The notes under the pieces are model-generated. The model made no database searches. It was not told where the DNA came from and saw only the letters and a list, made by a program, of their open reading frames with translations. The position numbers and the translations under genes were made by a program. A DNA stretch of 64,000 bases from Eledone cirrhosa (lineage: Eukaryota): contig OZ024741.1 of NCBI GenBank assembly GCA_964016885.1, positions 305,536,001 through 305,600,000 of the forward strand, written 5' to 3'. Positions within the stretch are counted from its first letter, which is position 1. Each line of letters opens with the position of its first letter. This document shows positions 2,128-50,086 of the stretch, piece after piece.

Positions 2128-2346
2128 TAATATTTAACTGGCCATATCCGGCCAGAATTCTCTCACCTCTTTCTGTTTAAACCAGCCATAACTGGCCACT
2201 CATTCTTATGATAAGGTATTGTTCTCAAAATAAATAACATCAAAATCTCGCAGATTCGATATTATGTGAGATAATTATGTAAGATAAAGGCTTTACCACA
2301 AAAATACATTAGTATATATAGAGTAATGTAAATGCTAAAGGGTTAA
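2128..2346. mobile_element. TTAA/CCC (piggyBac-like) MITE, left end decayed
   Basis: Ends GTAAATGCTAAAGGG-TTAA; homologous to 6625-6819 and 7709-9112. Confidence 0.7.
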
Positions 2347-2959
2347 TATACTTTTATATCATCTCTACCAACCCTTCCATCTCCCCCTTAAGCCGCAGAG
2401 CCCCCTTAGGCCCAGCGCCCTCTGGGAGACAGTAACACCTACTTTGAGAACCTCTTATCTACAGTACTTAAAACCCACAAAATTCCTCCTTTGACCATAA
2501 TTTCTTCTAAAATATATTCTCAGTCTTTCATCTCCAGCTCTACAAATCCATTGAACCTTGGAACTCCTTCTATGATCAAATTTCTTCTGAGAGAATAGAC
2601 ACAATAGAGTAAAAGATACAAATAATTGCATACTCACTGACCTGCAGTTATGTGTGGCCAATGAGGCCACATCTAACTCTGCTATTATTGGAAATCTGGT
2701 GCCAAATAAGAGAGTTGGCAGCACTGTCATTTATACAGGAAGGCAATGTCATGTGGTATTAGGTCAAATCTGTGGGTTTGCACTGAAATTAGTTGCATAT
2801 ATTAATATGCCAATAGATACAATACGAAAATAGTTATTGTTTCATGCACTATAACAAACCAGCTATGTATAATTCCTCTAAAAGTCTTTCAACTCTAATA
2901 TTACAAACCCAGGACATTCTTTTGCACAGGTTTAACTTTATATATACCTACAGCAAGGG

Positions 2960-3600
2960 CTCACAGGAAACAAGCTCTATCAAATGCTTAGAGGATTCCA
3001 TAAAAGTAGTTGAGAGTGACCTGGGTGACGAAATTAGCAGTGGAGGTGGGTGTTCTGAAAGTACAGCAGACAAAGTAAGAATGAGATGAAAAAAGTTCAG
3101 GGAGGTACTACCAGTGCTAGTTACAAAAGGTCTTTTTCCTCGGAATGCAGAGCAGATTGTATGATGCATGTATACAAACAGCAATACTGCATGGATGTGA
3201 GACTGTTTGCAGAGGACCTATTAAAATTGGAAAGAAATGAAGGTCACATGCTTTGATGGATGTGTAATAGTAGTATACATGAACAGTGAAGCATCAATGA
3301 ACTGAGAGAGAAACTGGGCACAATAGCTGTCAGATGCAGTGTGAAAGAGAGGAGACTCCAATGGTATAGAAATGTAAGGCATATGGAGGTTGATAACAGT
3401 AAAAGAAGTGCAGGGTACTTGAAGCTGAAGGAAACTATGGAAGAAGAAGACCTAGTAAAGTATGGGATAAAGTGATAAAAGTTGACCTCTCACAATTAAA
3501 CCTCTCAAAGATGATGGATGACACAGAATCAAGATATCTAGTGATATGCTGGTCTGCAGAATACCTACCTTCCCATGTGCACAGGATGAAGTAAACATCT
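2960..3600 (+). pseudogene. RTE-clade LINE, decayed C-terminal RT region
   Basis: Translates to LGDEISSGGGCSESTADKVRMR*KKFREVLPVL...; similar to the RTE piece at 16975-17404. Confidence 0.75.
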
Positions 3601-4484
3601 AGAGGACACAAGTCTGCACCTTCCTCCATCTTAATACTCACCCACCCCCTCCTCACTAGCTAAGTATTCCACCCTAGACCTCTCTCATTCACTTCCCCCA
3701 TCCCCATCGTGCATACACATTTCACTCTCCCAGCCCCCCAAGAACCACCTTCCACATATCCTGTCCAACCCATGCATGGAAAGCTAGTAATGCTCCACAC
3801 CTGCTCTCACACAGTGCTGCTGTCATGGCAAAAATAAAAAAAAGCACTTATTCCATCCTCTAACATGGTTGTGCTGGTGACATAACAAAAAGCACTCAGT
3901 CTCTCTTTAAGGTGGGTCCACTTTGTAGGTGGTCTTGTTGAAAAAGCACTCAGTCTAACCTGACAGATGATCATTTTAGTGCCACTGTAAAAAGCACCCA
4001 TCCCATGTTGTAATGTGGTTGGCATTAGGAAAGGCAACCAGCTGTTAAATGGTGATGATGATGATGATGATGTATATATATATTTGAAAATAAGCTTAAT
4101 ACTTATTTTATCAATCAGTTTTTATCAAACCACTAAGTTACCAGATATAAACACCAGATAGAGTCACGAAAGTAAATACAGACATGAACACACACTCATA
4201 AACAAACTCTCGGTCCCAAATAATAGGAGTAGAGTAGAATAAGCCATAATTTTTCTAAGTTGTCTATATTGGGGGGGGGGGGGGGGATAAGAGCGGGAGT
4301 AGGTTTAAAAAAAATCTGAAAAATTAAAAGGAGGGAGGTGACGACGACGATTACTAGCCACCCAAGAGTACATACATGCATTCGTACATACATTATTTAA
4401 AAATATGTGCACCCTACAATCAAATTTAAACTGTTTCCTACTCAACTATCAAAACGTTTTTTAATATTTATACACTACTTTCTT

Positions 4485-4996
4485 TAACCCTTTCATGACT
4501 GCATTTCTAATGAAATACTCTTTATTTTAATTAATTAATGAAAAATTTACTAAAATTATTAATTATTTCATTACTAAGATGTGGTTAGAATGCCTTAGGA
4601 AAGAATCACTGGACAGATTTTACGGACAAAACCAGCCGGCAGGTGGCCCATGGGTAGACCCCAAGTAATATGGTTGGATAATATCCATGAGCTTAGCTGG
4701 TCATGCTTGGGGATCCAGCTGGATTAGTTGGAACTGGTTGCTTCTGTCAGGACCCACTGGAAGGAGTGTTTGAGGACTCTGCTCCCACGGCCCTCTCAAG
4801 AATAAGTGGGTGAAGAAGAAGAAGAAGAAGAAGAAGAAGAAGAAGAAGAAGAAGAAGAAGATAGTAACTTAATGTAAGATTCTTATATAAAATTATGTAG
4901 GAAAATTTTTTACATAAATTCGAAACCTTTAAAATGGGTGGTTTTATTTCATAGAACCAAAGCCGGTTTTAGCCAGATTGGTATCTAAAGGGTTAA
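4485..4996. mobile_element. TTAA-flanked MITE containing a nested RTE 3' end (about 4589-4860, (GAA)n tail)
   Basis: TTAACCCTTT...AAAGGGTTAA termini; the insert is homologous to 15918-16147 and 57950-58160. Confidence 0.6.
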
Positions 4997-5429
4997 AATA
5001 TGTAGTGCTAAGTTGAATAATGGTCTTATAAGTCTCAATTAGAAACATTTTATCTGTCAATCTATCTAGCTATTATTGTTTTATGTCTATTAAAGTCAAA
5101 CAAACAATGTTTGATAGTGGAATCATCATCATCATCCTTACCACCACCACCACCGCTGCCACCACCACCACCACCACCACCATCACCACCACCACCATCA
5201 CCACCATCAACATCATCATCATCATCATCACTGTGTCTCACTCTTATGTTCCATTTCTACAGCTGGATGTTCTTCTTAATGCCAAATGCTTCAGGGCATA
5301 TATCAAGTGTGTTTTATCATGACACCACTATTACCACTTGGCAGGGTGGATTAGGTGTTTTTTTTTTTATTATGGCACCACCCCTACCACTTTACAGGGT
5401 GGGCTGTGTGCATTTCATTGCAGCAACAG

Positions 5430-5630
5430 GACTTCTGTAGTTTCCACTTAACAAATTCCACTCAAAAAGCATTGGTTAACCCAAGGTTATAGTAGAAGAT
5501 ACTTGCCCAATGTTCCAAAGCACCAAATCTTGTGATTGTGAAGCACACTTAGCCAAAGTTCCACACACGGGGACAGAATCCAGAACAACATGGTTGCACA
5601 CTGAACTCCTTAAACACACAGACATGCCTG
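5430..5630 (-). mobile_element. tRNA-derived SINE (family C)
   Basis: Reverse complement of the family at 15773-15917 (GGGCAAGTGYCTTCTACTATA core). Confidence 0.6.
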
Positions 5631-6019
5631 TATCTAATATGATTGTTTACCATAGTTTTCATTAGCAGCTTCAATAGAAGTTGGAATCCTTACAAATACA
5701 TAAAGAATAACATAAAGACAAAAAAAAATAAATATCATTAATGAGAACAATGCAAAAAAAAAAAAAACTCCCTCAGAATGCCCTTTTGACTTTGAAATAA
5801 ATGTAGGTGTATATACATATACATAAATATATGCGTGTGTATATATATATATATTCACACACACACACACATATATACATACATGCATACACAGATATAT
5901 ATTCATATATAGTTAAAATATACATACACACATATATACACACACATACACACACACGTGCACACACACATACACACATATATGATTATGTGGGACTATA
6001 CCTTATATATATATATATA

Positions 6020-6198
6020 TAGGAAAAGGTATGACCCCGACGGCAGAGCTCAAGCCGTTTAGACGGCTATTTCAGTCCAGAAAGCCTTGAGCTCTGCCGT
6101 CGGGGTCATACCTTTTCCTATTACCCACTCTACTACCCTAAGTATTGAGTACTCTGGTGCATTATGGTCCATCTGGTTCCTTACCACAATTCCTTTGT
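6020..6198 (+). mobile_element. Fold-back mini-element in (TA)n, 'GACCCCGACGG' family, with the 3' half of a hammerhead
   Basis: 35-bp perfect inverted repeat (6020-6054/6086-6120) plus a ~78-bp tail. GAAA-GC-cttga-GC-TC motif; no CUGANGA. Homologues at 25112 and 31702. Confidence 0.7.
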
Positions 6199-6624
6199 TA
6201 TATATATATATGTAAATGTTAGTGCTGGCGCCACAACAAAAAGCACCCAGTCCACCCTGTAAGGCAGCAGTGATGATACCATGATAAAAGGCTTCCAGTA
6301 CTCGCTGTAAAGTGGTTGGTATTAGGAAGAGCATCAGGCCATAGAAATTTAGCCCAAAATAGAATATATGGGTTAGACATGGTCACCTGACCTATCTAGC
6401 CTCAGAATGAGACAATCCCGTCCAACTCATACAAGCATGGAAAATGGATGTTAAACAATGATGATGATGATGATGACACACACATCAACTCTATATTGTT
6501 TAGTTTGAGTTTCTAAATAACTACAATACAAGGATACTACATCCACATGGTTGCTTTATCTGCTAGAAATAACAGCCAAATTTCTACAAATCATGCCTTG
6601 CTATCTTTAAAAAGGAACTTTACT

Positions 6625-6819
6625 CCTTTAATATTTTAGCATTTAAACAGGCTGTATCCAGCCAGAATTCTCTCCCTTCTTTCTGTTTAAACTGGCCTAT
6701 TGTAGATAATATCAAAATCTTGTAGATTCAATTTTATGTAAGATAATTTTGTCAGATAAAGTCTTTACCACAAAAAAATAATAGTATATATAGAGTAATG
6801 TAAATGCTAAAAGGGTTAA
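6625..6819. mobile_element. TTAA/CCC (piggyBac-like) MITE
   Basis: Homologous to 2128-2346; ends AAATGCTAAAAGGG-TTAA. Confidence 0.7.
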
Positions 6820-7527
6820 GTGACACTTTGCTTTATAGTTTTTGGTAATATTTCTGCTTCAAAATTACATATCTATTTGTTTATCTTTATACACAGGAAA
6901 AGAGAAAGAAAAAGAAAAAAAAAAGAGGCAAGGAGGAGGAAAAAGGGAGAGAGATTGGGAAAGAGCACACTCTACATGATTGACTGCATTACACAAACAA
7001 GATGGTAAAAGTACCGCTTCAGAAAACAGCCTGTTTCCCAGTGTATCAGCCATTCCTGCTCATGGGATTTTTCCTTTGGTGTGATTCCCCTTTCCTGATC
7101 TTACAGAGGAAAATGATGACATTCTGGGGATTGAGGACATTGGAGGTTTTGATGGCAAATAGTCCAAAACAGAAATGATCAGTCAAAGCCTGGTATTTAG
7201 TTATCTACCGTTCTTCTGTGGCAGTCTGGTGACTGAGGACATTGGAGGTTCTCAATGGTAAAGGATATAAGATGGAATTCCTCTGTATTACAGGTTCTGA
7301 TAGCCTGTGGCTAAAGTGATGAGGTTGGCTCAGAACAACTGATACCCTGTGGCTAAAGTGATGAGGTTGGTTCAGGAGAATGTGTTGCAGCATTAGAGAA
7401 CAGTTCACATATTTACAGATGGTATAACATTGTTTCTCTCAAGGTTGATGATGGGTCATGTGTCACTTTGGACAATGAATTAATGTGTAAGTGGTTGAGT
7501 ATTCCACAGACACTTGTACCCTTAAGG

Positions 7528-10015: not shown

Positions 10016-10539
10016 TTACTATTTCCATTTGTATCGCTGAATTTATTTTCTCTTTCATCTCTTCTCTTCTCTTTCCTCCTTCAATTTTTATCATTCACTC
10101 AATGATGTTAAAAATCATATTCAGTTCTTCTCCACACAAAACACAAGAAAAATATGCCGAAGAATGTGTTCAAGACCTCCCTTATCTTCAACAACGCAAA
10201 GCACCATGACTGGAATTTGGTTTTTGAAGCCCACAACAAAAAATACGTATATAATTAAATGAAACAGGTGAAAGTAATGTAAGGTAAATAAGGAAAATAT
10301 TTATGTTATTTAGTAGAACAGTATGAAGCAATAATAATTTATTTATTTATTAATGCTTTCTTACATAAGGTCACACAAATAATTCTTTCTAACATAGGCA
10401 CAAGGCCAGCAATTTTGGGAAAGGAGGAAGCTGATTATATTGACTTTGGTACTTAATGATGGTTTCATACCTAACACCACAATAACAAATATGGTTTCTT
10501 ACATAAGGCCGCAATAATAATGGTTTATTATATAAGGTC

Positions 10540-12515
10540 ACAATAATAGTGATGGTTTTTTTTACATAATGTTTCAACAATAATGGTTTATTATATAAGG
10601 TCACAATAATAGTGATGGTTTTCTTACATAAGGTTTCAATAATAATGGTTTATTATATAAGGCCACAATAATGATAATGGTTTCTTACATAAGGTTTCAA
10701 CAATAATGGTTTATTATATAAGGTCACAATAATGATAATGGTTTCTTACATAAGGTTTCAACAATAATGGTTTATTATATAAGGTCACAATAATGATAAT
10801 GGTTTCTTACATAAGGTTTCAATAATAATGGTTTATTATATAAGGCCACAATAATGATAATGGTTTCTTACATAATGTTTCAATAATAATGGTTTATTAT
10901 ATAAGGCCACAATAATGATAATGGTTTCTTACATAAGGTTTCAATAATAATAATGGTTTATTATATAAGGCCACAATAATGATAATGGTTTCTTACATAA
11001 GGTTTCAATAATAATGGTTTATTATATAAGGCCACAATAATGATAATGGTTTCTTACATAAGGTTTCAATAATAATGGTTTATTATATAAGGCCACAATA
11101 ATGATAATGGTTTCTTACATAAGGTTTCAATAATAATGGTTTATTATATACGGCCACAATAATGATAATCGTTTCTTACATAAGGTTTCAATAATAATGG
11201 TTTATTATATAATGCCACAATAATGATAATGGTTTCTTACATAAGGTTTCAACAATAATGGTTTATTATATAAGGTCACAATAATGATAATGGTTTCTTA
11301 CATAAGGTTTCAACAATAATGGTTTATTATATAAGGTCACAATAATGATAATGGTTTCTTACATAAGGTTTCAATAATAATGGTTTATTATATAAGGCCA
11401 CAATAATGATAATGGTTTCTTACATAAGGTTTCAATAATAATGGTTTATATAAGGCCACAATAATGATAATGGTTTCTTACATAAGGTTTCAACAATAAT
11501 GGTTTATTATATAAGGTCACAATAATGATAATGGTTTCTTACATAAGGTTTCAATAATAATGGTTTATTATATAAGGCCACAATAATGATAATGGTTTCT
11601 TACATAAGGTTTCAATAATAATGGTTTATTATATAAGGCCACAATAATGATAATGGTTTCTTACATAAGGTTTCAACAATAATGGTTTATTATATAAGGT
11701 CACAATAATGATAATAGTTTCTTACATAAGGTTTCAATAATAATGGTTTATTATATAAGGCCACAATAATGATAATGGTTTCTTACATAAGGTTTCAATA
11801 ATAATGGTTTATTATATAAGGCCACAATAATGATAATGGTTTCTTACATAAGGTTTCAACAATAATGGTTTATTATATAAGGCCACAATAATGATAATGG
11901 TTTCTTACATAAGGTTTCAATAATAATGGTTTATTATATAAGGCCACAATAATGATAATGGTTTCTTACATAAGGTTTCAATAATAATGGTTTATTATAT
12001 AAGGCCACAATAATGATAATAGTTTCTTACATAAGGTTTCAATAATAATGGTTTATTATATAAGGCCACAATAATGATAATGGTTTCTTACATAAGGTTT
12101 CAATAATAATGGTTTATTATATAAAGCCACAATAATGATAATGGTTTCTTACATAAGGTTTCAACAATAATGGTTTATTATATAAGGCCACAATAATGAT
12201 AATGGTTTCTTACATAAGGTTTCAATAATAATGGTTTATTATATAAGGCCACAATAATGATAATGGTTTCTTACATAAGGTTTCAATAATAATGGTTTAT
12301 TATATAAGGCCACAATAATGATAATGGTTTCTTACATAAGGTTTCAATAATAATGGTTTATTATATAAGGCCACAATAATGATAATGGTTTCTTACATAA
12401 GGTTTCAACAATAATGGTTTATTATATAAGGTCACAATAATGATAATGGTTTCTTACATAAGGTTTCAATAATAATGGTTTATTATATAAGGCCACAATA
12501 ATGATAATGGTTTCT
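10540..12515. repeat. 61-bp tandem satellite (dimer of two ~30-bp subunits), about 32 copies
   Basis: Unit AATAATGATAATGGTTTCTTACATAAGGTTTCAATAATAATGGTTTATTATATAAGGCCAC; the register shifts 1 nt per 60-nt line. Confidence 0.95.
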
Positions 12516-21609: not shown

Positions 21610-21681
<72 letters not shown>

Positions 21682-21690
<9 letters not shown>

Positions 21691-22234
21691 TTAAAAAATA
21701 ATGAATAAAACAATGAAACAGTTCCTTATATTAAACAAAAAAAGTTCATTATTTAACGATCGTTTCTAGGATATATATGTGTTAGAATTGGCATGCATAT
21801 TCAACAGATCTATGTACAAAATTATACAAAATTATACAAACTATCAAAATTAAATATACATACCAACACATATATATGCCGTCTTCAGAAATATTTCTGA
21901 AGACGGCATATATATGTGTTGGTATGTATATTTAATTTTGATAGTTTGTATAATTTTGTATAATTTTGTACATAGATCTGTTGAATATGCATGCCAATTC
22001 TAACACATATATATCCTAGAAACGATCGTTAAATAATGAACTTTTTTTGTTTAATATAAGGAACTGTTTCATTGTTTTATTCATTATTTTTTTAATATTT
22101 TATCTTGACTCTGTATTCCGTTTATCTTTCACCGAAAGTGATTTTTCATTGCATCTCTTCTTTCCATGATATCCGGATTACATTGAGTTCTTCATACGGA
22201 TTGGACACTACCGTAAACTCTTGGTAGATTTATC

Positions 22235-22238
<4 letters not shown>
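21682..22238 (+). mobile_element. Penelope-like/retrozyme-type fold-back element in (TA)n
   Basis: Near-perfect ~210-bp arms with no spacer (centre 21892/21893), then a ~135-bp unique tail; flanked by (TA)n. Confidence 0.8.
21892..22035 (+). ncRNA. Type I hammerhead ribozyme with a very long stem II
   Basis: Stem I TATTT/AAATA; core CTGAAGA 21897-21903; stem II ATATATATGTGTTGG/CTAACACATATATAT; GAAA 22019-22022; palindromic stem III CGATCG; GUU cleavage predicted after 22030. Confidence 0.7.
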
Positions 22239-22269
<31 letters not shown>

Positions 22270-22914: not shown

Positions 22915-24345
22915 AAGTTACCTTCAATGGTCAACTATCTGGGGAAATCCCAATTGACAATGGGGTAAAGAAAGGTGATATTCCTGCTCTTACGCTTTTA
23001 TCCATCTTCTTTGCTGCCTTGCTCACACATGCTTTCCATGATTGTGACAAAGGCATTCTCTTACGGTTCAGAATTACCGGAAATGTTTTGAACTTAAGAA
23101 GGTTTAATGCCAAAACAAAAACGTTTCAAGCTTTGATCAGAGACCTTCTTTATACCGACAACGCTGACTTCCTAGCACACACAGAAGCTGACATGCAGCA
23201 CATTATGGGCCGTTTCTCATTCTCGTGTACACCATTTGGGTTTACACTCAACTTTAAAAAGACAAAAATAATGTTTATCCCTTCTCCTGGAAAACCATAT
23301 TCTGAACCTAATATCATGGTTGGTGGAACCAGGTTGGAGTAATAGATACATTTGTCTACTTGGTTAGCACACTGTCAAATGATGGCTGCTTGGATGCTGA
23401 AATATATCTGTGTGTCCAGAAGGACTCTGTTGCTTTCAGAAAATTGGAAAAGGGAGTTTGGGCTAATCACAACATTACCAACAATACCAAGGTGTGTGAG
23501 TATAGATCATGTGTTCTGTCTGCTCTTTTATACTTCCCCGAAACCTGGACGCTATTCCGTAAACATATCAAATTGCTTGAGCGTTTTCAGCAGAAATGTC
23601 TAAGGCGCATATTCAACATCTAGTGGCACGACAGAACTCCTGACATCAATGTCCTTGTCAAAGCAGAATGTCCAAGCATTGAGTCTCAAGTAACATTTTC
23701 TTAAATGCGCTGGACAGGACATATCGTCCGCATGAAAGCAGAATCCCAATGCAACTGTTTTACGGTGAGCTCCATCTTGGGAAAAGGCCTCAACACAAAC
23801 CGAAAATGAGGTACAAGGACACCATCAAGAACAACCTCAAAGAGCTTGCATTTGATATAGACAATGGGGAGGAGATAGCAGAGTGGCGAACGCGCATAAA
23901 TGGCAATTGTTGTCACCTAGAATATAAACAACTGAAGCGTCGGCTCCGGAAGGGTGATGCTCACATTCTGGATGAAGACATCAGTAGTTGGACATGTCAA
24001 TTCTGTCAACGTGTACTCCTCCCAAAAGCTGTTTACGTTAATCACCTGAAGTCACATGAAAGAACAACCACCCTCAACACCATTCAACAAAGACCTGGTG
24101 AAACAATGTGTGTGATATGCAACAAAGTGTGTAGAACTAGTTCCGGACTAAAAAGACACGTGGTGGTGCATAAAGATTGTATCCCACAAAATGGCCCCCA
24201 CCAATTCTGTGGAAAGCGCAACTCTCTTGGACCACATGTGTCGCAAACCATGCAGATCTGTAGCTGGTTTACAAAGTCATCTACAAAGTCATGGATTCTG
24301 ATGGGATGGCAATGAAGAATCAATGAAAGACGGTAATCGGTTGTG
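22915..24345 (+). pseudogene. RTE (BovB-like) LINE: RT C-terminal half and C2H2 zinc fingers
   Basis: GVKKGDIPA...IRDLLYTDNADF...LFYGELHLGKRPQHKPKMRYKDTIK; CQFC..H..H and CVIC..H..H, plus a third, frameshifted finger. Confidence 0.85.
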
Positions 24346-26171: not shown

Positions 26172-26546
26172 GATATTAAATAAATGGAAACTATATTTAT
26201 AAAACCATATTTATTTCATTATACATATTTCAGGGATACCAAATTAAAATATGGTATGCCTTCACCAGACAAAATACAATATATAAACAGTTTTATAAAT
26301 AATTTTGACGTACCCTATTAAATGCAACCATTATTTTTGGAAACTGTTTATATATTGTATTTTGTCTGATGAAGGCATACCATATTTTAATTTGGTATCC
26401 CTGAAATATGTATAATGAAATAAATATGGTTTTATAAATATAGTTTCCATTTATTTAATATCTACTCCAAAAACTTGTCGAGTGCTTTATATCAGTTATA
26501 AAATATTTACTTGTTGTATCCCAACAATTTTAAATAGAACTTTTGC
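26172..26546 (+). mobile_element. Fold-back hammerhead element, 'TAAATGGAAAC' family
   Basis: Arms 26172-26293 and 26341-26462, 47-nt spacer, ~84-bp tail; in (TA)n. Confidence 0.8.
26358..26422 (+). ncRNA. Type I hammerhead ribozyme
   Basis: TATTTTGT-CTGATGA-AGGCATACCA...TGGTATCCCT-GAAA-TATGTA-TA|ATGAAATA; cleavage predicted after 26414. Confidence 0.75.
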
Positions 26547-26681
<135 letters not shown>

Positions 26682-26690
26682 TATATATAT

Positions 26691-27026
26691 ACAATATATT
26701 AATAAATGGAAACTATATTTATAAAACCATATATATATTTATTATATATATTTCAAGGGCCACCAAGGCAAATTATGGTCTTTTTTTCGGGTATGTCAAT
26801 ATTTATTTATAAAACGAATCTGTATTTTATCTGATGAAAGCGCACCATAATTTGCCTTGGTTGCCCTTGAAATATATATATAATAAAATAAATATGGTTT
26901 TATAAATATAGTTTCCATTTATTAATATATTGTGTATTTACTCCACTAATTTGTTGAGTGCTTTATATCAGTTATAAAAAAACTTTAAGCTTGTTGAATT
27001 CCAACAAATTAAATATAACCTCTGCA
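26691..27026 (+). mobile_element. Fold-back hammerhead element, 'TAAATGGAAAC' family
   Basis: Arms about 26691-26779 and 26844-26933; tail ends CCAACAAATTAAATATAACCTCTGCA|TATA. Confidence 0.8.
26823..26890 (+). ncRNA. Type I hammerhead ribozyme
   Basis: TATTTTAT-CTGATGA-AAGCGCACCA...TGGTTGCCCTT-GAAA-TATATATA-TA|ATAAAATA. Confidence 0.7.
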
Positions 27027-29930: not shown

Positions 29931-30494
29931 TGTGTATATATATATATATATGGGTGTGTATATATAGGTGTGTATATATAGGTGCGTATATATATATATA
30001 TAGGTGTGTATATATAGGTGTGTATATATATATATAGGTGTGTATATATAGGTGTGTATATAAAATATATATATATAACTTTCCTTTGTACCCACACCTA
30101 CATATATATATATATATATCATCATCACCGTTTAACGTCCATCTTCCACGCTTGCATGGGTTTGATATATATATAGTTAAAGAGAATTTCTTAGAATAAA
30201 AAGACTCACTTGCAGAATATGATGCACTTTCTCTTGTTTTCCTTTGTTTCTTATTGTTGATTGTTCGTTCTTACTTTTCCTCTTTCGCACTTATCTCGTT
30301 AAAACTAAATAAATATTTGTAATAATACATAAAATATAAAAACCATCATTATTTTTGGTTAAATTTTCTCTGTGTGTGTGTGTGTGTGTGTATGTGTGTG
30401 TGTGTGTGTAGACAGACAAATAAATGGTGTGGGCTCTCCGTTGGGATCCTAACTATATATATATATATAACTATATATATATATATATCAATGC

Positions 30495-30760
30495 TATTAA
30501 TAAATGGAAACTATATTTATAAAACCATATTTATTCTATTATAAATATTTCAAGGGTACCAAAACTTTGGTACGCTCTCATCAGATAAAATACAGAGCTT
30601 GTTTTATAAATATTGAAATATATATAATAGAATAAATATGGTTTTATAAATATAGTTTCCATTTATTAATATCATATTCCAGAAAATCTGTCGACTGCTT
30701 CGCATCTGTTATAAATATATATATTTGTTGAATTACCAACAAATTAAATATCTCTTTGCT
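30495..30760 (+). mobile_element. Fold-back element, 'TAAATGGAAAC' family; forward arm internally deleted
   Basis: Outer arms start at 30495 and end at 30671; tail to ~30760; in (TA)n. Confidence 0.75.
30532..30592 (-). ncRNA. Type I hammerhead ribozyme (in the inverted arm)
   Basis: Minus strand TATTTTAT-CTGATGA-GAGCGTACCAAAG...TTTTGGTACCCTT-GAAA-TATTTA-TA|ATAGAATA. Confidence 0.7.
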
Positions 30761-30784
30761 TATATATATATAATATATATAATA

Positions 30785-31243
30785 TACAATAAATTAATAA
30801 ATGGAAACTATATTTATAAAACCATATTTATTTTATTATACATATTTCAAGGGCAACCAAGGCAAATTATGGTGCTCTTTCATCAGATAAAATACAGATT
30901 TGTTTTATAAATAAATATTGACATACCCGGAAAAAAGACAACCTTAACGGTTGGCGCTTCCTGGATAGTTACTATCCAGGAAGCGCCAACCGTTAAGGTT
31001 GTCTTTTTTCCGGGTATGTCAATATTTATTTATAAAACAAATCTGTATTTTATCTGATGAAAGAGCACCATAATTTGCCTTGGTTGCCCTTGAAATATGT
31101 ATAATAAAATAAATATGGTTTTATAAATATGGTTTCCATTTATTAATATATTGTGTATTTACTCCACTAACTTGTTGAGTGCTTTATATCAGTTATAAAC
31201 ATTTTAAAGTTTGTTGAATCCCAACAAATTAAATATAACCTCT

Positions 31244-31315: not shown

Positions 31316-31682
31316 GTGAGGTTTTTTTTACAAAATGAAAAATAACCGAGGTGTCCTACACGAGTGGAAGTATAAAGAAAAAGGGATGAAATCGAAAATG
31401 CAACTGGAGTCTTATTTTTTTAAAAATATATATATTTATTTGGTTCCTTTACCGGTTTCGCAGTTCTTCTGCTTTTCAAAAGGTGAGTTGAGATGGAGGG
31501 TCTGTGGTTTTTCTCACATGTGGTTTTTCTCACATGTGAGAAAAACCACAGACCCTCCATCTCAACTCACCTTTTGAAAAGCAGAAGAACTGCGAAACCG
31601 GTAAAGGAACCAAATAAATATATATATTTTAAAAAAAATAAGACTTCAGTTGCATTTTCGATTTCATCCCTTTTTCTTTATA
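31309..31682 (-). mobile_element. Fold-back element with a variant (U3/A8) minimal hammerhead
   Basis: Arms 31371-31518 and 31535-31682; 16-bp duplication at the centre; tail 31309-31370. Motif CCTT-TTGAAAA-GCAG-aagaa-CTGC-GAAA-CCGG-TA|AAGG at 31570-31607, mirrored at about 31446-31483. Confidence 0.75.
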
Positions 31683-32181: not shown

Positions 32182-32374
32182 TAACATCAAATTTAATATA
32201 GAAATGGCTTCTACAAGACTAGAACTGTTTTATTCGAAAGGACTGATGATTTCTTTCGAATGAAACAGTTCTAGTCCTGTAGAAGCCATTGCTATATTAA
32301 ATTTGATGTTTACACTCTAGTAATGTATTGAGTACCTTACTTACTGTGGTTGCCCCTGATTGAACCCGGGACTC
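32182..32374 (+). mobile_element. Fold-back element with a hammerhead-like core at its centre
   Basis: Arms 32182-32240 and 32253-32310; the spacer contains CTGATGA (32243); GAAA at 32262; ~64-bp tail. Stem I/III register is imperfect. Confidence 0.65.
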
Positions 32375-34623: not shown

Positions 34624-34877
34624 TGTGGTTAGAAAAAGCTATCTCACTTACCGTTTTTCGTAGGCGCCGCTAAACTCCACTGCAGGTTACTCCTCTTCCA
34701 CGTGCGTCCAACTGTTCACACCGGGAGCTGCCCAAAACTCGCGTCCACACCGTTTGCTGGTCACCACTAAAGAGAGGCCCTCTGCTGGCCCTTCCGGTCG
34801 AGCATCCTTCCGGCCAAACACCCTTCCGGTCGAGCACTCCCCCGCCTCCGGCCACCGCACGCCACACCATACCCACA
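34624..34877 (-). repeat. 3' LTR (254 bp)
   Basis: Near-identical to 38545-38846 except a 48-bp duplication and a few substitutions/indels. Confidence 0.95.
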
Positions 34878-34890
34878 CGCCTCCCTGATC

Positions 34891-37770
34891 TCAAGGATCA
34901 ATTTCCCCCTCGTCCCTCTGCATATGAAAGTCTGCTGTCCAGGTTGGTGGTCTACGACTTCGTTGCGATCTTCGTAGTATTGGGGCAGAGCTCTGGGTTT
35001 CCACCTCATCTTGGGTTTCCTCTTCCTCGGAGTCCGTCGACACAGTGATTCTTCTTACATCCAGGACATGACGTGGTACCCCGTCCACGGACACATTGTT
35101 CTTTGAATTTACGGCCGTCACCGTTCCCCTTCCCCATTGAGATGTGCAACGTGCATCTGGGGGCTTAACCCAGACTTCGCCCACCTGCACGAATGCACTC
35201 TCTCTCCCCACTGGCCGTTGTGGTGGCGTGCACGGGTGCTGCCACTCGTATTTGAATACTGCTCTGTGTGGCACCGATTCCTCGACCTGTCCAACCCGAG
35301 GGGACATATTGTACCAGAACACTGCCTCCATTGGTAAGATATGGCCCCGCTCCGCCATTGCCTTGATCGTCCGGTGGTGTCGCTCCACGATTCCATTCCC
35401 GCTCGGCCTGTGCGCCGCTCTGAAGAAACGGTCCACCTTCCATCCATCGAGCATCTCCCTCAGTGCCTCCGAGCGGAACGCTGCGCTGTTGTCCATCAGC
35501 AGTTCGTCCACAGGGCCCCGCTCCAAGAACACCTCTCTCAACGTCCGCACGATTTCCTCGGCCGTTCCAGTCTTCATCTCCCTCCATATCGCCATTCGAC
35601 CTGGTCCACAGTCGACCATCGAGAGGTACGTTCCCTGCCGGTAGTGCGTCACATCCACCTCTAATCGCTTCCAGTCGCGATCCACCGGGAGGCTTCCCGT
35701 TTCGTGTACACCCGGGGCGGGATCAATGGACTGACATCGGACGCAGCCTCTAACCCCCCCCCCCCCCCGAACACTGTGTATGCTAACGTCCGAGTCGATT
35801 CTCCCTGCTAGGAACAGGCTCCTATCCACCCCCATGTGGTGCATGTCATGCAACCCCTTCAGGTCTGACTCCGTCAGCCGACACACGGCAGCTATCTTAT
35901 CCTCTACCTCCTCCGGCGCTTCCATCCAGGTTTTCTTCACTCTAGTTAAGATGTCCGCCCTATTTTTCTCTGAGGGCACGAACACTACGCTCAGCTTCAG
36001 GTCGAACTCGGTGGCCAGCTCTCCTAACGTTCCCAGGCGGCGCTTTATCAGCATCTCCGCCGCGCCTCTCGTTCGCACTCTCTTCTCACTGGTGAGCACT
36101 GATCTTACCTATCCGAGTACAGTAGCCGAGTCGGTGCGTATCTCGATGGTGCGCAGCCCCCACCGCAGGGCGAGGTTCACCCCTCTCAACACCGCGTCCA
36201 GCTCGGCCACATTGATGTGGCTGCAGTCGTCCTTCTTTCTAAGCCAGGCTGCATCCTCGACCTCAACACCTCCTAGCTCCAACGTGACACCCAGCGCTAT
36301 GCTGCTGGCATCGCACCATACGGTCCCGCTCTGTGATTTGGGAACATACCAGCGTCCCCGCACTGGGTCGTCGGCCTTCACCCTCCCCGCGATCTCCTGC
36401 ATCATGGCCACCGTCCTCTCTCCCACTCTGTCACTCCAGGTCACCCCTCCCGCTCGTCTCTTGACATAGCTGCATGCCGTCCGGAGCCACCCAGCGATCG
36501 GGTAGTGACCCACCAGCTTTCCATACACCGAGAAAAGCTCCCGCCTACTCATACTTGGGCCCAGTTCCGGAACTTCGTTTCCCCTCTGGAACACAAAAAC
36601 GCCCGTCTTGTCTCGCCGTAGCCTAAGTCCCAGCGCGGCTCCTCCCTCCAATGCTTCTGATGGCTTCGCAGTCAGTCCATACCTCCGCAAATGGCTCGTG
36701 ACCTCCGCCGTCGACACCACCGACTCGTCCACTAGGATGTCGTCAATATAGGAGTTAGTAGCCCTCTTTATCTTGTCGGCCCTCCCCAGAGCGGTCTTGA
36801 GGACCGCCGCCATGATCTTCGGTGCGGAGCTCAGCCCGAAACCGAGCCTGGTCAGGCAATATGTCCGGCCCTTATACCCGACCAGCTGATACCGCCAGAG
36901 CTTCTCATCTATATGCAACTGCAAGTAAGCCGACTTTAGATCCACGATCGCTGAACCCCCCGTCATTCGTCTCCACTCACGCAGGGTTTCCCCACAGACA
37001 TCCGAGACCTCGCCACCCGTGTGGCATGACACGTGCTCGTTCAGCTCCCGATAGTCCAGCACCGGCCTCACCTTGCTCTTCGTGGGTTGCACCACCGCCA
37101 TTAACGGCAATACTCCGCACTTCACCTCCTCCTTCCAGGGAAGCAGTATGCCCTCTTCGATCCATCTCTCTACTTCTCGCTCGAACTCGCTCCTAGCGTT
37201 TCCCTTCAATGTGTGTTGATAGCAGCCCACTTTGGTCTTCAGTGTTGGTGGTTCTCCCTTCCAGTACCACTCAACAACCCATCGCTGCCCATCTAACACG
37301 GCCTTGAAGTCTTTGTCCTGTACAGTGTAAGCGGGGTATTCCTCCTCGTGGGCCTTCTGGTTCTCATGACGTGCACTCACAGCGCATACCGATGCAGCGG
37401 CGCCAAACGACACACCGACATTGTTCACCGTGACGCCCCCTAGACGGCCAATCGCGTCCATGCCCATAACCACGCCGATCCCATCCACCACACTGTCTAC
37501 CACGATGGCGGAAAGCCTTATCCTCCTTCCCCGTACCGCTATTTCCATCTCGCTGCGACCTCGGCATTCAATTTTCCTGCCGTCGACTGCCCTTACGCTG
37601 CTCTTCCCTCCCCACCTCTGCGCCACCCCCGCGGTCACCAGTGTCGTCGCACAGCCCGTATCCACGAGGGCTCGCTGTGGCTTCCCCCTCACGAAGACTT
37701 CCACCACGGGCAGCGCCGCTACTCGTAAGGGGCAACTACCGGCGCAGTAGTTCCCCTTGGATCGTTTCCC
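34891..37770 (-). pseudogene. pol: Gypsy pol (protease, RT, RNase H, integrase) with one in-frame stop at 36109-36111
   Basis: ALVDTG protease; RPVLDYRELN, DLKSAY and YIDD in RT; WCDAS...HINVAEL...RTDS...NRADILTR in RNase H; H-x3-H...CVRC and DDE core (EVDVTH, LLMDN, GNGIVERHHRTIK) in integrase. Confidence 0.9.
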
Positions 37771-38481
37771 TGGTCGCAGTTAGTAGCGATGCGGCCTGGT
37801 CGCTTACACCGGTAGTAAATTATCTCCGGCTTCGACTCTTTACAGTCTCTAGCCATGTGCGGGCCCTGGCACCGAAAACAGCGCCCTCTAAACGCACGCG
37901 GGCGGCCGTGTGCCGAGGTTGCCTCCCTTTCACCATTTCGCTGCCAGGTGTCCTGAGCCTCTGTAGTTGCTATCGCCGCAACACTCTTTTTGGCATCTTC
38001 CGCTATGATCCGTGCTTGTTCCACCAGTGAACGCATTTCCATCTCTTTATAACCCGGAACTTGCTGCAGTTTCACCGCTATGTCGTCCGGAAATCCATTG
38101 ATGAACGCCAACCGCACCGTGCGTCCGCATTTCACCTGGTAACCGGCCAACATGGCCAACCGCCGTATTTCCGCTGCGAAAATGTCGACGCGCTCACCAT
38201 TCCACCTGATTCTCGCCAGCTTAGCAAAAGCCGCCAACGGTCCCTCGGCGAATGCATCCATCAGACGCATTCTCAATCTTCTGCGCATCTCTTTGGCTGT
38301 GCTCGTCCAACTCAAGGAAGAGTACCAACGCATCGCCCTCGAGGTACAGTGCCATGAGGCCGGCCACATCCTCTATCTTCTGCAAGCTTGCGACCAGCCG
38401 AACCTTCCGCAGCCAAGCGACAACATCGTCTTCCCCGGTAAATGCCCTAATAGCTTCGTTCATCCGTAGTCTTGTCGCCAT
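37719..38481 (-). pseudogene. gag: Gypsy gag with CCHC zinc knuckle(s); one frameshift near 38270
   Basis: MATRLRMNEAIRAFTGEDDVVAWL...LYLEGDAL continues into LMDAFAEG...CFRCQGPHMARDC and a degenerate second knuckle. Confidence 0.85.
37727..37770 (-). promoter_or_regulatory. Programmed -1 ribosomal frameshift signal (gag-pol)
   Basis: Slippery heptamer G GGA AAC in the gag frame (37770-37764), then after 5 nt the hairpin AAGGGGAACTAC-tgcgccg-GTAGTTGCCCCTT; the -1 frame is open into pol. Confidence 0.8.
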
Positions 38482-38532
38482 CTTCTGACTTGTCTTGCGG
38501 CAAGTGTTTTTTTTTTGTTTTTTTTTTCAGTC

Positions 38533-38544
38533 GCCGAAATAGCT
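38533..38544 (-). promoter_or_regulatory. Atypical primer-binding site AGCTATTTCGGC
   Basis: Abuts the 5' LTR; complementary to nt 1-12 of metazoan tRNA-Phe (GCCGAAAUAGCU, recalled sequence); no TGG start. Confidence 0.55.
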
Positions 38545-38846
38545 TGTGGTTAGAAAAAGCTATCTCACTTACCGCTTTTCGTAGGCGCCGCTAAACTCCA
38601 CTGCAGGTTACTCCTCTTCCACGTGCGTCCAACTGCTTCACACCGGGAGCTGACCAAAACTCGCGTCCACACCGTTTGCTGGTCACCACTAAAGAGAGCC
38701 CTCTGCTGGCCCTTCCGGTCGAGCATCCTTCCGGCCAAACACCCTTCCGGTCGAGCACTCCCCCACCTCCGGCCACCGCACGCCACACACCCTTCCGGTC
38801 GAGCACTCCCCTGCCTCCGGCCACCGCACGCCACACCATACCCACA
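38545..38846 (-). repeat. 5' LTR (302 bp)
   Basis: TGTGG...CCACA termini; internal 48-bp tandem duplication. Confidence 0.95.
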
Positions 38847-39028
38847 CGATGTTCAGAGAGTGGGATTGGCGCCATGCAAAGCCTTTCCTAACTTACAAAA
38901 GCTTCAAGCACAGGCATCGCTTGATGTGACATTGTTTGCGATGCATTGCCGGTCATAGACAAGCCACGTCCGTGATGCTCATACTTAAGTATCAAGCGAT
39001 GGCATTACTCGAAATCGAGTTGCAACCA

Positions 39029-40747: not shown

Positions 40748-40789
<42 letters not shown>

Positions 40790-40792
<3 letters not shown>

Positions 40793-41065
40793 GTATAAAA
40801 ATCAATACAATATAATTACCTCATTACCAGAGGTTTCCCGAATGAGGCGAATACGAAAGAAACGTCTTCATTCGTTCGTCAGACGAGGCAATATATTCTG
40901 ACGAACGAATGGAGACGTTTCTTTCGTATTCGCCTCATTCGGGAAACCTCTGGTAATGAGGTAATTATATTGTATTGATTTTTATACATTAAATTTTGCT
41001 CTGATACTTACATAGAGCACTCTTCACTTCTATGACCTTTTCTGTTTTCAACGGAAATTTCAATA

Positions 41066-41068
<3 letters not shown>
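40790..41068 (+). mobile_element. Fold-back hammerhead element in (TA)n
   Basis: Arms 40790-40883 and 40897-40990, 13-nt spacer, 78-bp tail. Confidence 0.8.
40889..40972 (+). ncRNA. Type I hammerhead ribozyme with a full stem III
   Basis: Stem I CAATATATT/ATTATATTG (1 mismatch); CTGACGA at 40898; stem II CGAATG/CATTCG; GAAA at 40943; stem III CCTC-tggtaat-GAGG; GUA cleavage predicted after 40963. Confidence 0.8.
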
Positions 41069-49955: not shown

Positions 49956-50086
49956 AGATGGTTAAAAGAATTCCATATATTTTATTATGCGCATTTCGAA
50001 TACAAAATCTTCCTGATGATTTTGTATTCGAAATGCGCATAATAAAATATATGGAACTCTTTTAACCATCTTTTAATTTCTTCTTT
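49956..50086 (+). mobile_element. Short fold-back element with a hammerhead core at its centre
   Basis: Arms 49956-50009 and 50018-50071; CTGATGA (50013)-ttttgtattc-GAAA-TGCGCA-TA; stem II and stem I incomplete. Confidence 0.6.

Follow-up and report, generated by a model that had tools for sequence, protein, structure and literature searches.

Introduction

Penelope-like elements (PLEs) of the Hydra clade are described as encoding a protein with an RWK motif, DKT in place of DKG, a CxCX5C linker, no CCHH motif, and CxxC and CxH motifs; among the members described is an octopus family that targets (TA)n (PMC8557442). Pairs of hammerheads lying on opposite strands, 100-700 bp apart, have been noted in metazoan PLEs, and a model in which these ribozymes cleave the element RNA and generate a circle was proposed in the same account (PMC4209133). 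The transcript of Penelope itself starts inside the pseudo-LTR (PMC2377424). The Poseidon RT cuts and extends both strands of its target, starting at two internal RNA sites, with the interval between these sites constituting the tail; for Poseidon_Ac, uncut RNA is reported to be the main substrate, and its hammerhead to need protein (PMC11167929). PLE ends that are both inverted and tailed, and hammerhead pairs on opposite strands, are already on published record (PMC8557442, PMC4209133, PMC3846280); the origin of the tandem and inverted structures of PLEs and the role of their hammerhead are stated to be open in the passages concerned (PMC8557442, PMC2377424).

The locus at 21682-22238 of the window (the whole 64,000-nt stretch of DNA that was analyzed) belongs, judging by its sequence, with these elements: it represents a short Hydra-clade PLE insertion in (TA)n. 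The counts that follow make it probable that the insertion is recent, and that it arose in a TA repeat by twin priming on one capped RNA, with both copies running off the 5' end of that RNA and being joined head to head.

The palindrome and its one-sided tail

The coordinates of the parts are collected in Table 1. The original prediction of a spacerless palindrome of ~420 bp is real: the arms (21682-21892 and 21893-22103) are 211 bp each, abut with a spacer of 0, and differ by the single mismatch T21692/T22093. The center reads CAGAAAT/ATTTCTG (the slash marks the apex), and its CTG is shared with the CTGAAGA of a predicted hammerhead core, which does begin, as had been claimed, 4 nt past the apex. 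The hammerhead details given at the time also stand: stem II is 115 nt long; stem I closes by the pairing of AAATA in its 3' strand with TATTT in its 5' strand; and the same ribozyme motif is indeed found on the minus strand. The suggestion of a recent origin is in keeping with arms that differ at 1 of 211 positions, and with another copy in the genome that is 100% identical to the palindrome locus over 346 bp.

Table 1. Parts of the palindromic insertion and its flanks (window coordinates)
Feature	Position	Strand	Remarks
Left (TA)n target flank	21612..21684	.	36.5 copies of AT
Short arm: inverted PLE pseudo-LTR	21682..21893	-	unit ~+3 to +205, the first fixed end (numbering of parent L051)
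Head-to-head junction	21889..21896	.	both arms start at about unit +3; 2 nt (TA) in common
Long arm: pseudo-LTR and tail	21892..22238	+	to the second fixed end (unit +342)
Type I hammerhead motif (predicted)	21892..22035	+	stem I 5' strand 21892-21896, CUGAAGA 21897-21903, stem II 21904-22018
Type I hammerhead motif, continued		+	GAAA 22019-22022; palindromic stem III 22021-22030; stem I 3' strand 22031-22035
Predicted hammerhead cut	after 22030	+	GUU
Mirror hammerhead motif	21750..21893	-	core from 21888
One-sided tail	22104..22238	+	135 bp; parent 5' UTR between the two fixed ends
Right (TA)n target flank	22238..22268	.	15.5 copies of AT

What had been missed is the one-sided tail, the existence of hundreds of sister copies and the Hydra-clade PLE as the source of the sequence. 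The tail is attached to the right arm only, the left arm having none, and the whole is framed by (TA)36 on the left and (TA)15 on the right. A long bulged hairpin starts at 22107 in the tail, 4 nt past the short end, and is present as well in six of six sister tails; folding yielded no counterpart hairpin after the long end in six parents. The full palindrome folds at -313.9 kcal/mol, a value from which no more follows than that a transcript reading through it would form a double strand. Since palindromes of this layout persist in hundreds, the locus is not rare; in itself it is an ordinary dead fragment of a retroelement.

The parent element

A 27-mer from the arm has 6,716 exact matches in the 3.0-Gb genome (control, 0). 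Exact sequence patterns were used to locate copies of the family, and 423 head-to-head apices are found genome-wide, each no more than 30 nt from two cores. The element unit is 7,081 bp, and long copies carry ORFs of 810-813 amino acids. The 813-residue ORF of parent L051 has YRDD at 346 and NIVY at 691, followed by YIG at 707; RWR at 37 (R for the K of the RWK motif) and DKT at 115; a CxCx5C linker (CNCRNKANC) at 673, with one Cys between NIVY and YIG; and CRLC at 771 and CNH at 799, so that CxxC and CxH lie near the C-terminal end, with no CCHH in the protein. On the basis of these motifs, a single ORF comprises an RT followed by a C-terminal endonuclease of GIY-YIG type. A Pfam search of the ORF returned no RT or GIY-YIG match and a PDB sequence search nothing useful; Atlas neighbors at 0.96-0.99 include clusters in which 18-92% of the members have GIY-YIG or RVT_1. 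The protein motifs match the description of the Hydra clade, the placement being by motifs, and further traits of that clade are also present: the (TA)n target, the pseudo-LTR, the inverted copy and the one-sided tail.

The long arm in the window matches the opening 351 bases of L052, an ORF-bearing parent, in its 5' region at 98.3% identity, and the tail of the palindrome is the 5' UTR of the parent element. The window sequence thus being the 5' region of an ORF-bearing element, and tandem monomers being absent from the locus, identity as a non-LTR retrozyme (a tandem series of non-coding monomers, every one of which has a hammerhead) was considered and is rejected.

Several observations on the larger copies are recorded here. 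In L051 the 3' UTR (3187-7330) extends over ~4.1 kb, most of it microsatellite-like; in L049-L050, TA runs of the element 3' UTR have received an insertion of another family. Three-unit tandems and a two-sided multi-unit array of the full element are located at C1:126843752-126857482, C1:420382635-420396791 and C2:36297462-36323095.

Other features of the window

A second, unrelated family repeats the layout of the palindrome at 40786-41067, with a short arm, an apex just before a CUGACGA hammerhead, and a long arm with a 73-bp tail, all between TA flanks. It has 55 apices genome-wide close before a core, and each of the six loci read pairs a short arm with a long one. Eight further inverted pairs lie beside TA repeats (6019-6121, 26172-26462, 26684-26940, 30491-30675, 30781-31159, 31371-31682, 32183-32310 and 49956-50071), five of them with hammerhead cores by pattern; among the inverted pairs of the window, the position of the apex relative to the core differs by family. 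The minus strand of 34700-38900 holds what we take to be an LTR-retrotransposon-like element with RT- and integrase-like ORFs, and 22917-24315, just downstream of the palindrome, presumably consists of broken LINE-like RT fragments. A 61-bp tandem repeat (33 copies, 96% identity) occupies 10477-12515.

The predicted hammerhead

The segment 21886-22045 has a folding energy of -45.7 kcal/mol (z = -5.75), which none of 200 shuffled sequences equaled, and contains the hammerhead core elements CUGAAGA, GAAA and GUU (GUA in a sister subfamily). The sequence AACGATCGTT at 22021-22030, which would form stem III, is self-complementary, and its self-duplex is worth -12.4 kcal/mol. Stem I comprises 7 bp from the putative RNA start and 10 bp in read-through RNA, but the window copy has 5. 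Across a set of 54 arms representing 30 haplotypes, kinship of the arms being ignored, the variation in both of these stems, I and II, preserves pairing. In the 33 arms of this set that belong to repeated haplotypes, positions 1-7 of stem I are always paired, and pairs of stem II vary as G.U/A-U and as A-U/G.U/G-C; a change of U-A to C-G in stem I is seen in single-copy sister haplotypes.

Several features of the predicted hammerhead are non-canonical: a C.A adjoins the core, stem II contains a C.C mismatch, and the site is GUU. In the hammerhead residue numbering that we take to apply to this motif, the R10.1-Y11.1 pair next to the core is absent: there is a C.A in 33 of 33 arms, or there are extra bases flanking G.U on both sides. 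The free fold is better than the constrained hammerhead fold by 4.5 kcal/mol for RNA from +1 to +160, and by 10 kcal/mol for a 21885-22045 RNA, and Rfam gives no match at the gathering score in the 64-kb window. Few 5' ends lie at the predicted cut site, and they are in no clear excess: 34 were counted there, as against 19 at a control position for which the match odds differ, and 12 of the 34 show AG-AAAT, perhaps through small deletions.

Stem II contains splice-like signals (GTATGT at 21922, CTAAC at 22000 and a TAG ending at 22019, spanning 21922-22019 of the window), and its GGTAT is retained in a sister subfamily. Of nine genomic candidates for a spliced join none is spliced; an intron in stem II is unsupported.

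The apex as the probable start of the RNA

The census of arms covers the first 65 Mb of C1 and uses exact core motifs only. Among 100 consecutive intact-core arms, a stop close to the A of ATTATTTCTGAAGA is seen in 48 (at 0 to +8 in 44 of these), and the other 52 run on into the 3' UTR, which places a fixed 5' point ~7 nt before the hammerhead core. Genome-wide, 10 native upstream bases are found on 3,525 arms and an intact core on 6,310. At 37 joins of the form ATATAT-N-(+1), the native base being C, N is G in 14, A in 13, T in 6 and C in 4; the background frequency of G after ATATAT is 4.9-7.7%, and the excess of G is significant at p = 3e-7. Bases inserted at palindromic junctions (G 10, C 10) are uninformative since one base there reads both ways, and the evidence concerning G is for that reason restricted to the 37 TA joins. 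In L1 and SVA insertions, an extra 5' G has been attributed to copying of the cap (PMC3287187). The fixed stop, the excess of G and the start of the Penelope transcript in the pseudo-LTR together lead us to read the apex as, most likely, the capped RNA start of the element; the most likely reason that the apex adjoins the ribozyme is that the element RNA begins there. An apex at the ribozyme cut was rejected as the main explanation: 4 apices lie there, against 423 at +1, and the cut is ~140 nt downstream. The apex inserts of L002 and L018 repeat the first ~13 RNA bases two to three times, as if the RT had re-copied the 5' end.

Two fixed 3' ends and matched arm fates

One arm ends at unit +205 and the other at +342 in 58 of 59 short palindromes. 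Paired insertions, whatever their length (up to 12 kb), likewise have one short and one long arm in 30 of 31 cases, this set overlapping the 59 short palindromes. Two of the 59 arm comparisons are outliers, with 39 and 51 mismatches, and were retained in the count. An exception is the short/short pair L040-L041, which lies beside a long arm head to head with a fragment of another family. The locus (C1:30693300-30708200) consists of an 11-kb palindrome with two short ends, followed by the ORF fragment of the other family and the long arm; it is possibly a two-template or template-switch event. By analogy with Poseidon, the two fixed 3' ends would be RT start sites, one for each end of the DNA cut.

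The fates of the two arms at the fixed 5' point are matched. The 31 paired insertions divide into 16 in which both arms stop and 15 in which both run through, with 0 mixed (Fisher p = 3e-9); one of the 16 stop/stop pairs overshoots by ~10 nt. The 48 stopped arms have a partner that ends by +20 in 35 cases, a shorter partner in 7, no partner in 6 and a partner upstream of +1 in 0; a read-through arm with a partner starting at +20 (L049-L050) is an exception that falls outside the 31-pair census. The median number of differences between arms is 0 within an insertion and 8 between insertions. We infer from these counts that the two primers are extended on a single RNA molecule; two RNAs transcribed from the same donor, or gene conversion, would likewise produce identical arms.

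The arms that run through have a different bearing on the template. Pseudo-LTRs that are followed by the 5' UTR retain native upstream bases in 231 of 235 cases, so that full-length copies almost never begin at the putative cap site. Some arms exceed one 7,081-bp unit, and three-unit tandems occur. Since full-length copies pass +1 and multi-unit arms exist, a linear capped RNA explains the short class only, and the long class needs an endless template.

Mechanism and alternatives

From these counts a composite model of insertion can be drawn. The two ends of one DNA cut would prime synthesis on a shared capped RNA, each at one of two fixed internal sites; both cDNA copies would run off the 5' end of the RNA and then be joined head to head, generating the palindrome, which would be a non-coding by-product of uncut RNA and not a selected device. 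More tentatively, the long and tandem copies would come from an endless template, probably a circle, formed from a transcript longer than one unit by its two pseudo-LTR hammerheads, which would pair with each other through stem III and cut as a dimer; the circle proposed earlier for PLEs (PMC4209133) is the simplest template of this type. The support that the sequence counts give to twin priming is sharp; that for a circular template is indirect.

A bolder proposal, which we hold to be conceivable if somewhat short of probable, is that the 5'-terminal hammerhead is a switch between two templates. Uncut capped RNA would give rise to dead twin run-off palindromes, and cleavage of the dimer followed by ligation would give rise to a 7-kb circle, which a PLE dimer would copy from two sites at once, to yield every long, tandem and promoter-complete copy. 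If it is true, the inverted ends, one-sided tails and partial tandems of PLEs and the purpose of their ribozyme would come under one mechanism. The statistics of the family outweigh the locus itself in importance, as they supply exact positions for a putative transcript start, two putative RT starts and a putative circle junction; a literature search of open-access text found no publication with these counts.

The main rival explanation of the long copies keeps the twin priming but replaces the circle by a transfer guided by homology: on reaching the 5' end of a linear RNA, the growing strand would move to a 3' end that is terminally redundant, perhaps one located at the downstream hammerhead cut. 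Strand transfer accounts for the seamless -1/+1 junction and for repeated passes, an AATAAA is located just upstream of +1, and matched fates follow if each RNA either has or lacks the redundant end. What makes it unlikely is that independent jumps by each RT predict about one-half mixed pairs, whereas 0 of 31 were seen, and that passage is ~50% at terminal and 98% at internal pseudo-LTRs, a disparity that requires two fixed template classes. That PLE RTs are not known to have RNase H also counts against it.

Self-priming, in which one cDNA, or an antisense template, folds back on a short terminal palindrome and copies itself, is the published proposal for head-to-head PLE junctions (PMC3846280). 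It is compatible with the many apices that are short AT palindromes and with arms that are nearly identical. Fold-back cannot, however, join unrelated unit positions, as long insertions do (e.g., 2164 to 6861 and 3540 to 2544); at many short apices there are inserts that lack symmetry, as well as repeated copies of the first 13 nt; and no reason is offered for a second arm that ends exactly at the other fixed site. Self-priming is accordingly a quite improbable source of these structures.

That hundreds of copies have nearly the same length and ends could also suggest that the palindrome is itself a mobile non-autonomous unit (a hairpin, or retrozyme-like), descended from one master and possibly acting through dsRNA. 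This is very improbable: junctions vary from copy to copy, no tandem monomers exist at the locus, and the two arms of a palindrome share subfamily variants (0 differences within, 8 between), which implies that each palindrome was formed anew. Finally, long perfect palindromes are a known long-read artefact and the 12-22 short reads per run (RAD-seq) that cover 21891 cannot be assigned to this locus, but a fold-back chimera of sequencing or assembly, which the original prediction had named as its possible undoing, is scarcely credible for arms that differ at one base, have unequal ends fixed across the family and different unique flanks, and recur as 423 similar apices whose junctions vary and whose arms differ at as many as 3 positions in 190 nt, an apex-type loose end being present also in short-read contigs under another organism label (X4).

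Comparison with known systems

Among known elements, the closest in these features are the C-terminal EN+ PLEs of the Hydra clade, including Hydra-1_Obim (Craig et al. 2021, PMC8557442), with which the present element shares protein motifs, the (TA)n target and a pseudo-LTR hammerhead and, comparing by description, a tail on one side, tandems that are partial and a 5'-truncated copy in inverted orientation. It differs from the members described there in its dimensions, the unit being 7.1 kb with a 4.1-kb microsatellite-like 3' UTR where Hydra-clade members are generally under 3 kb, and the tail being 135 bp instead of 30-40 (PMC8557442). It differs as well in that about one-half of its arms stop at one fixed 5' point, which is unlike the clade as described (PMC8557442).

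The likeness to Poseidon_Ac in vitro (Frangieh et al. 2024, PMC11167929) would lie in the cutting and extension of both strands and in two internal starts that define the tail. The putative start sites of the present element lie 135 nt from each other within the 5' UTR, each arm using one of them; for Poseidon_Ac, no strand difference in start site is reported to have been seen, and joining is not addressed (PMC11167929).

With the metazoan PLE hammerheads (Cervera and de la Pena 2014, PMC4209133) the motif shares its type I form, its location in the pseudo-LTR, a short palindromic helix III and an extra base after A9. Its helix II of 115 nt compares with 7-8 bp in the minimal PLE hammerheads, and, unlike the hammerheads described there, it has an extra A before G12, so that a C.A flanks the core, and would start at the 5' end of the RNA (PMC4209133).

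The Penelope elements of Adineta vaga (PMC3846280) and Drosophila virilis (PMC2377424) have in common with the present one an inverted pseudo-LTR with an optional tail; their promoter and transcript start are located in the pseudo-LTR, and the origin of their tandems is stated to be open in the parts of those accounts that concern it. For these elements self-priming on an antisense template has been proposed (PMC3846280, PMC2377424); the data presented here favor twin priming on sense RNA.
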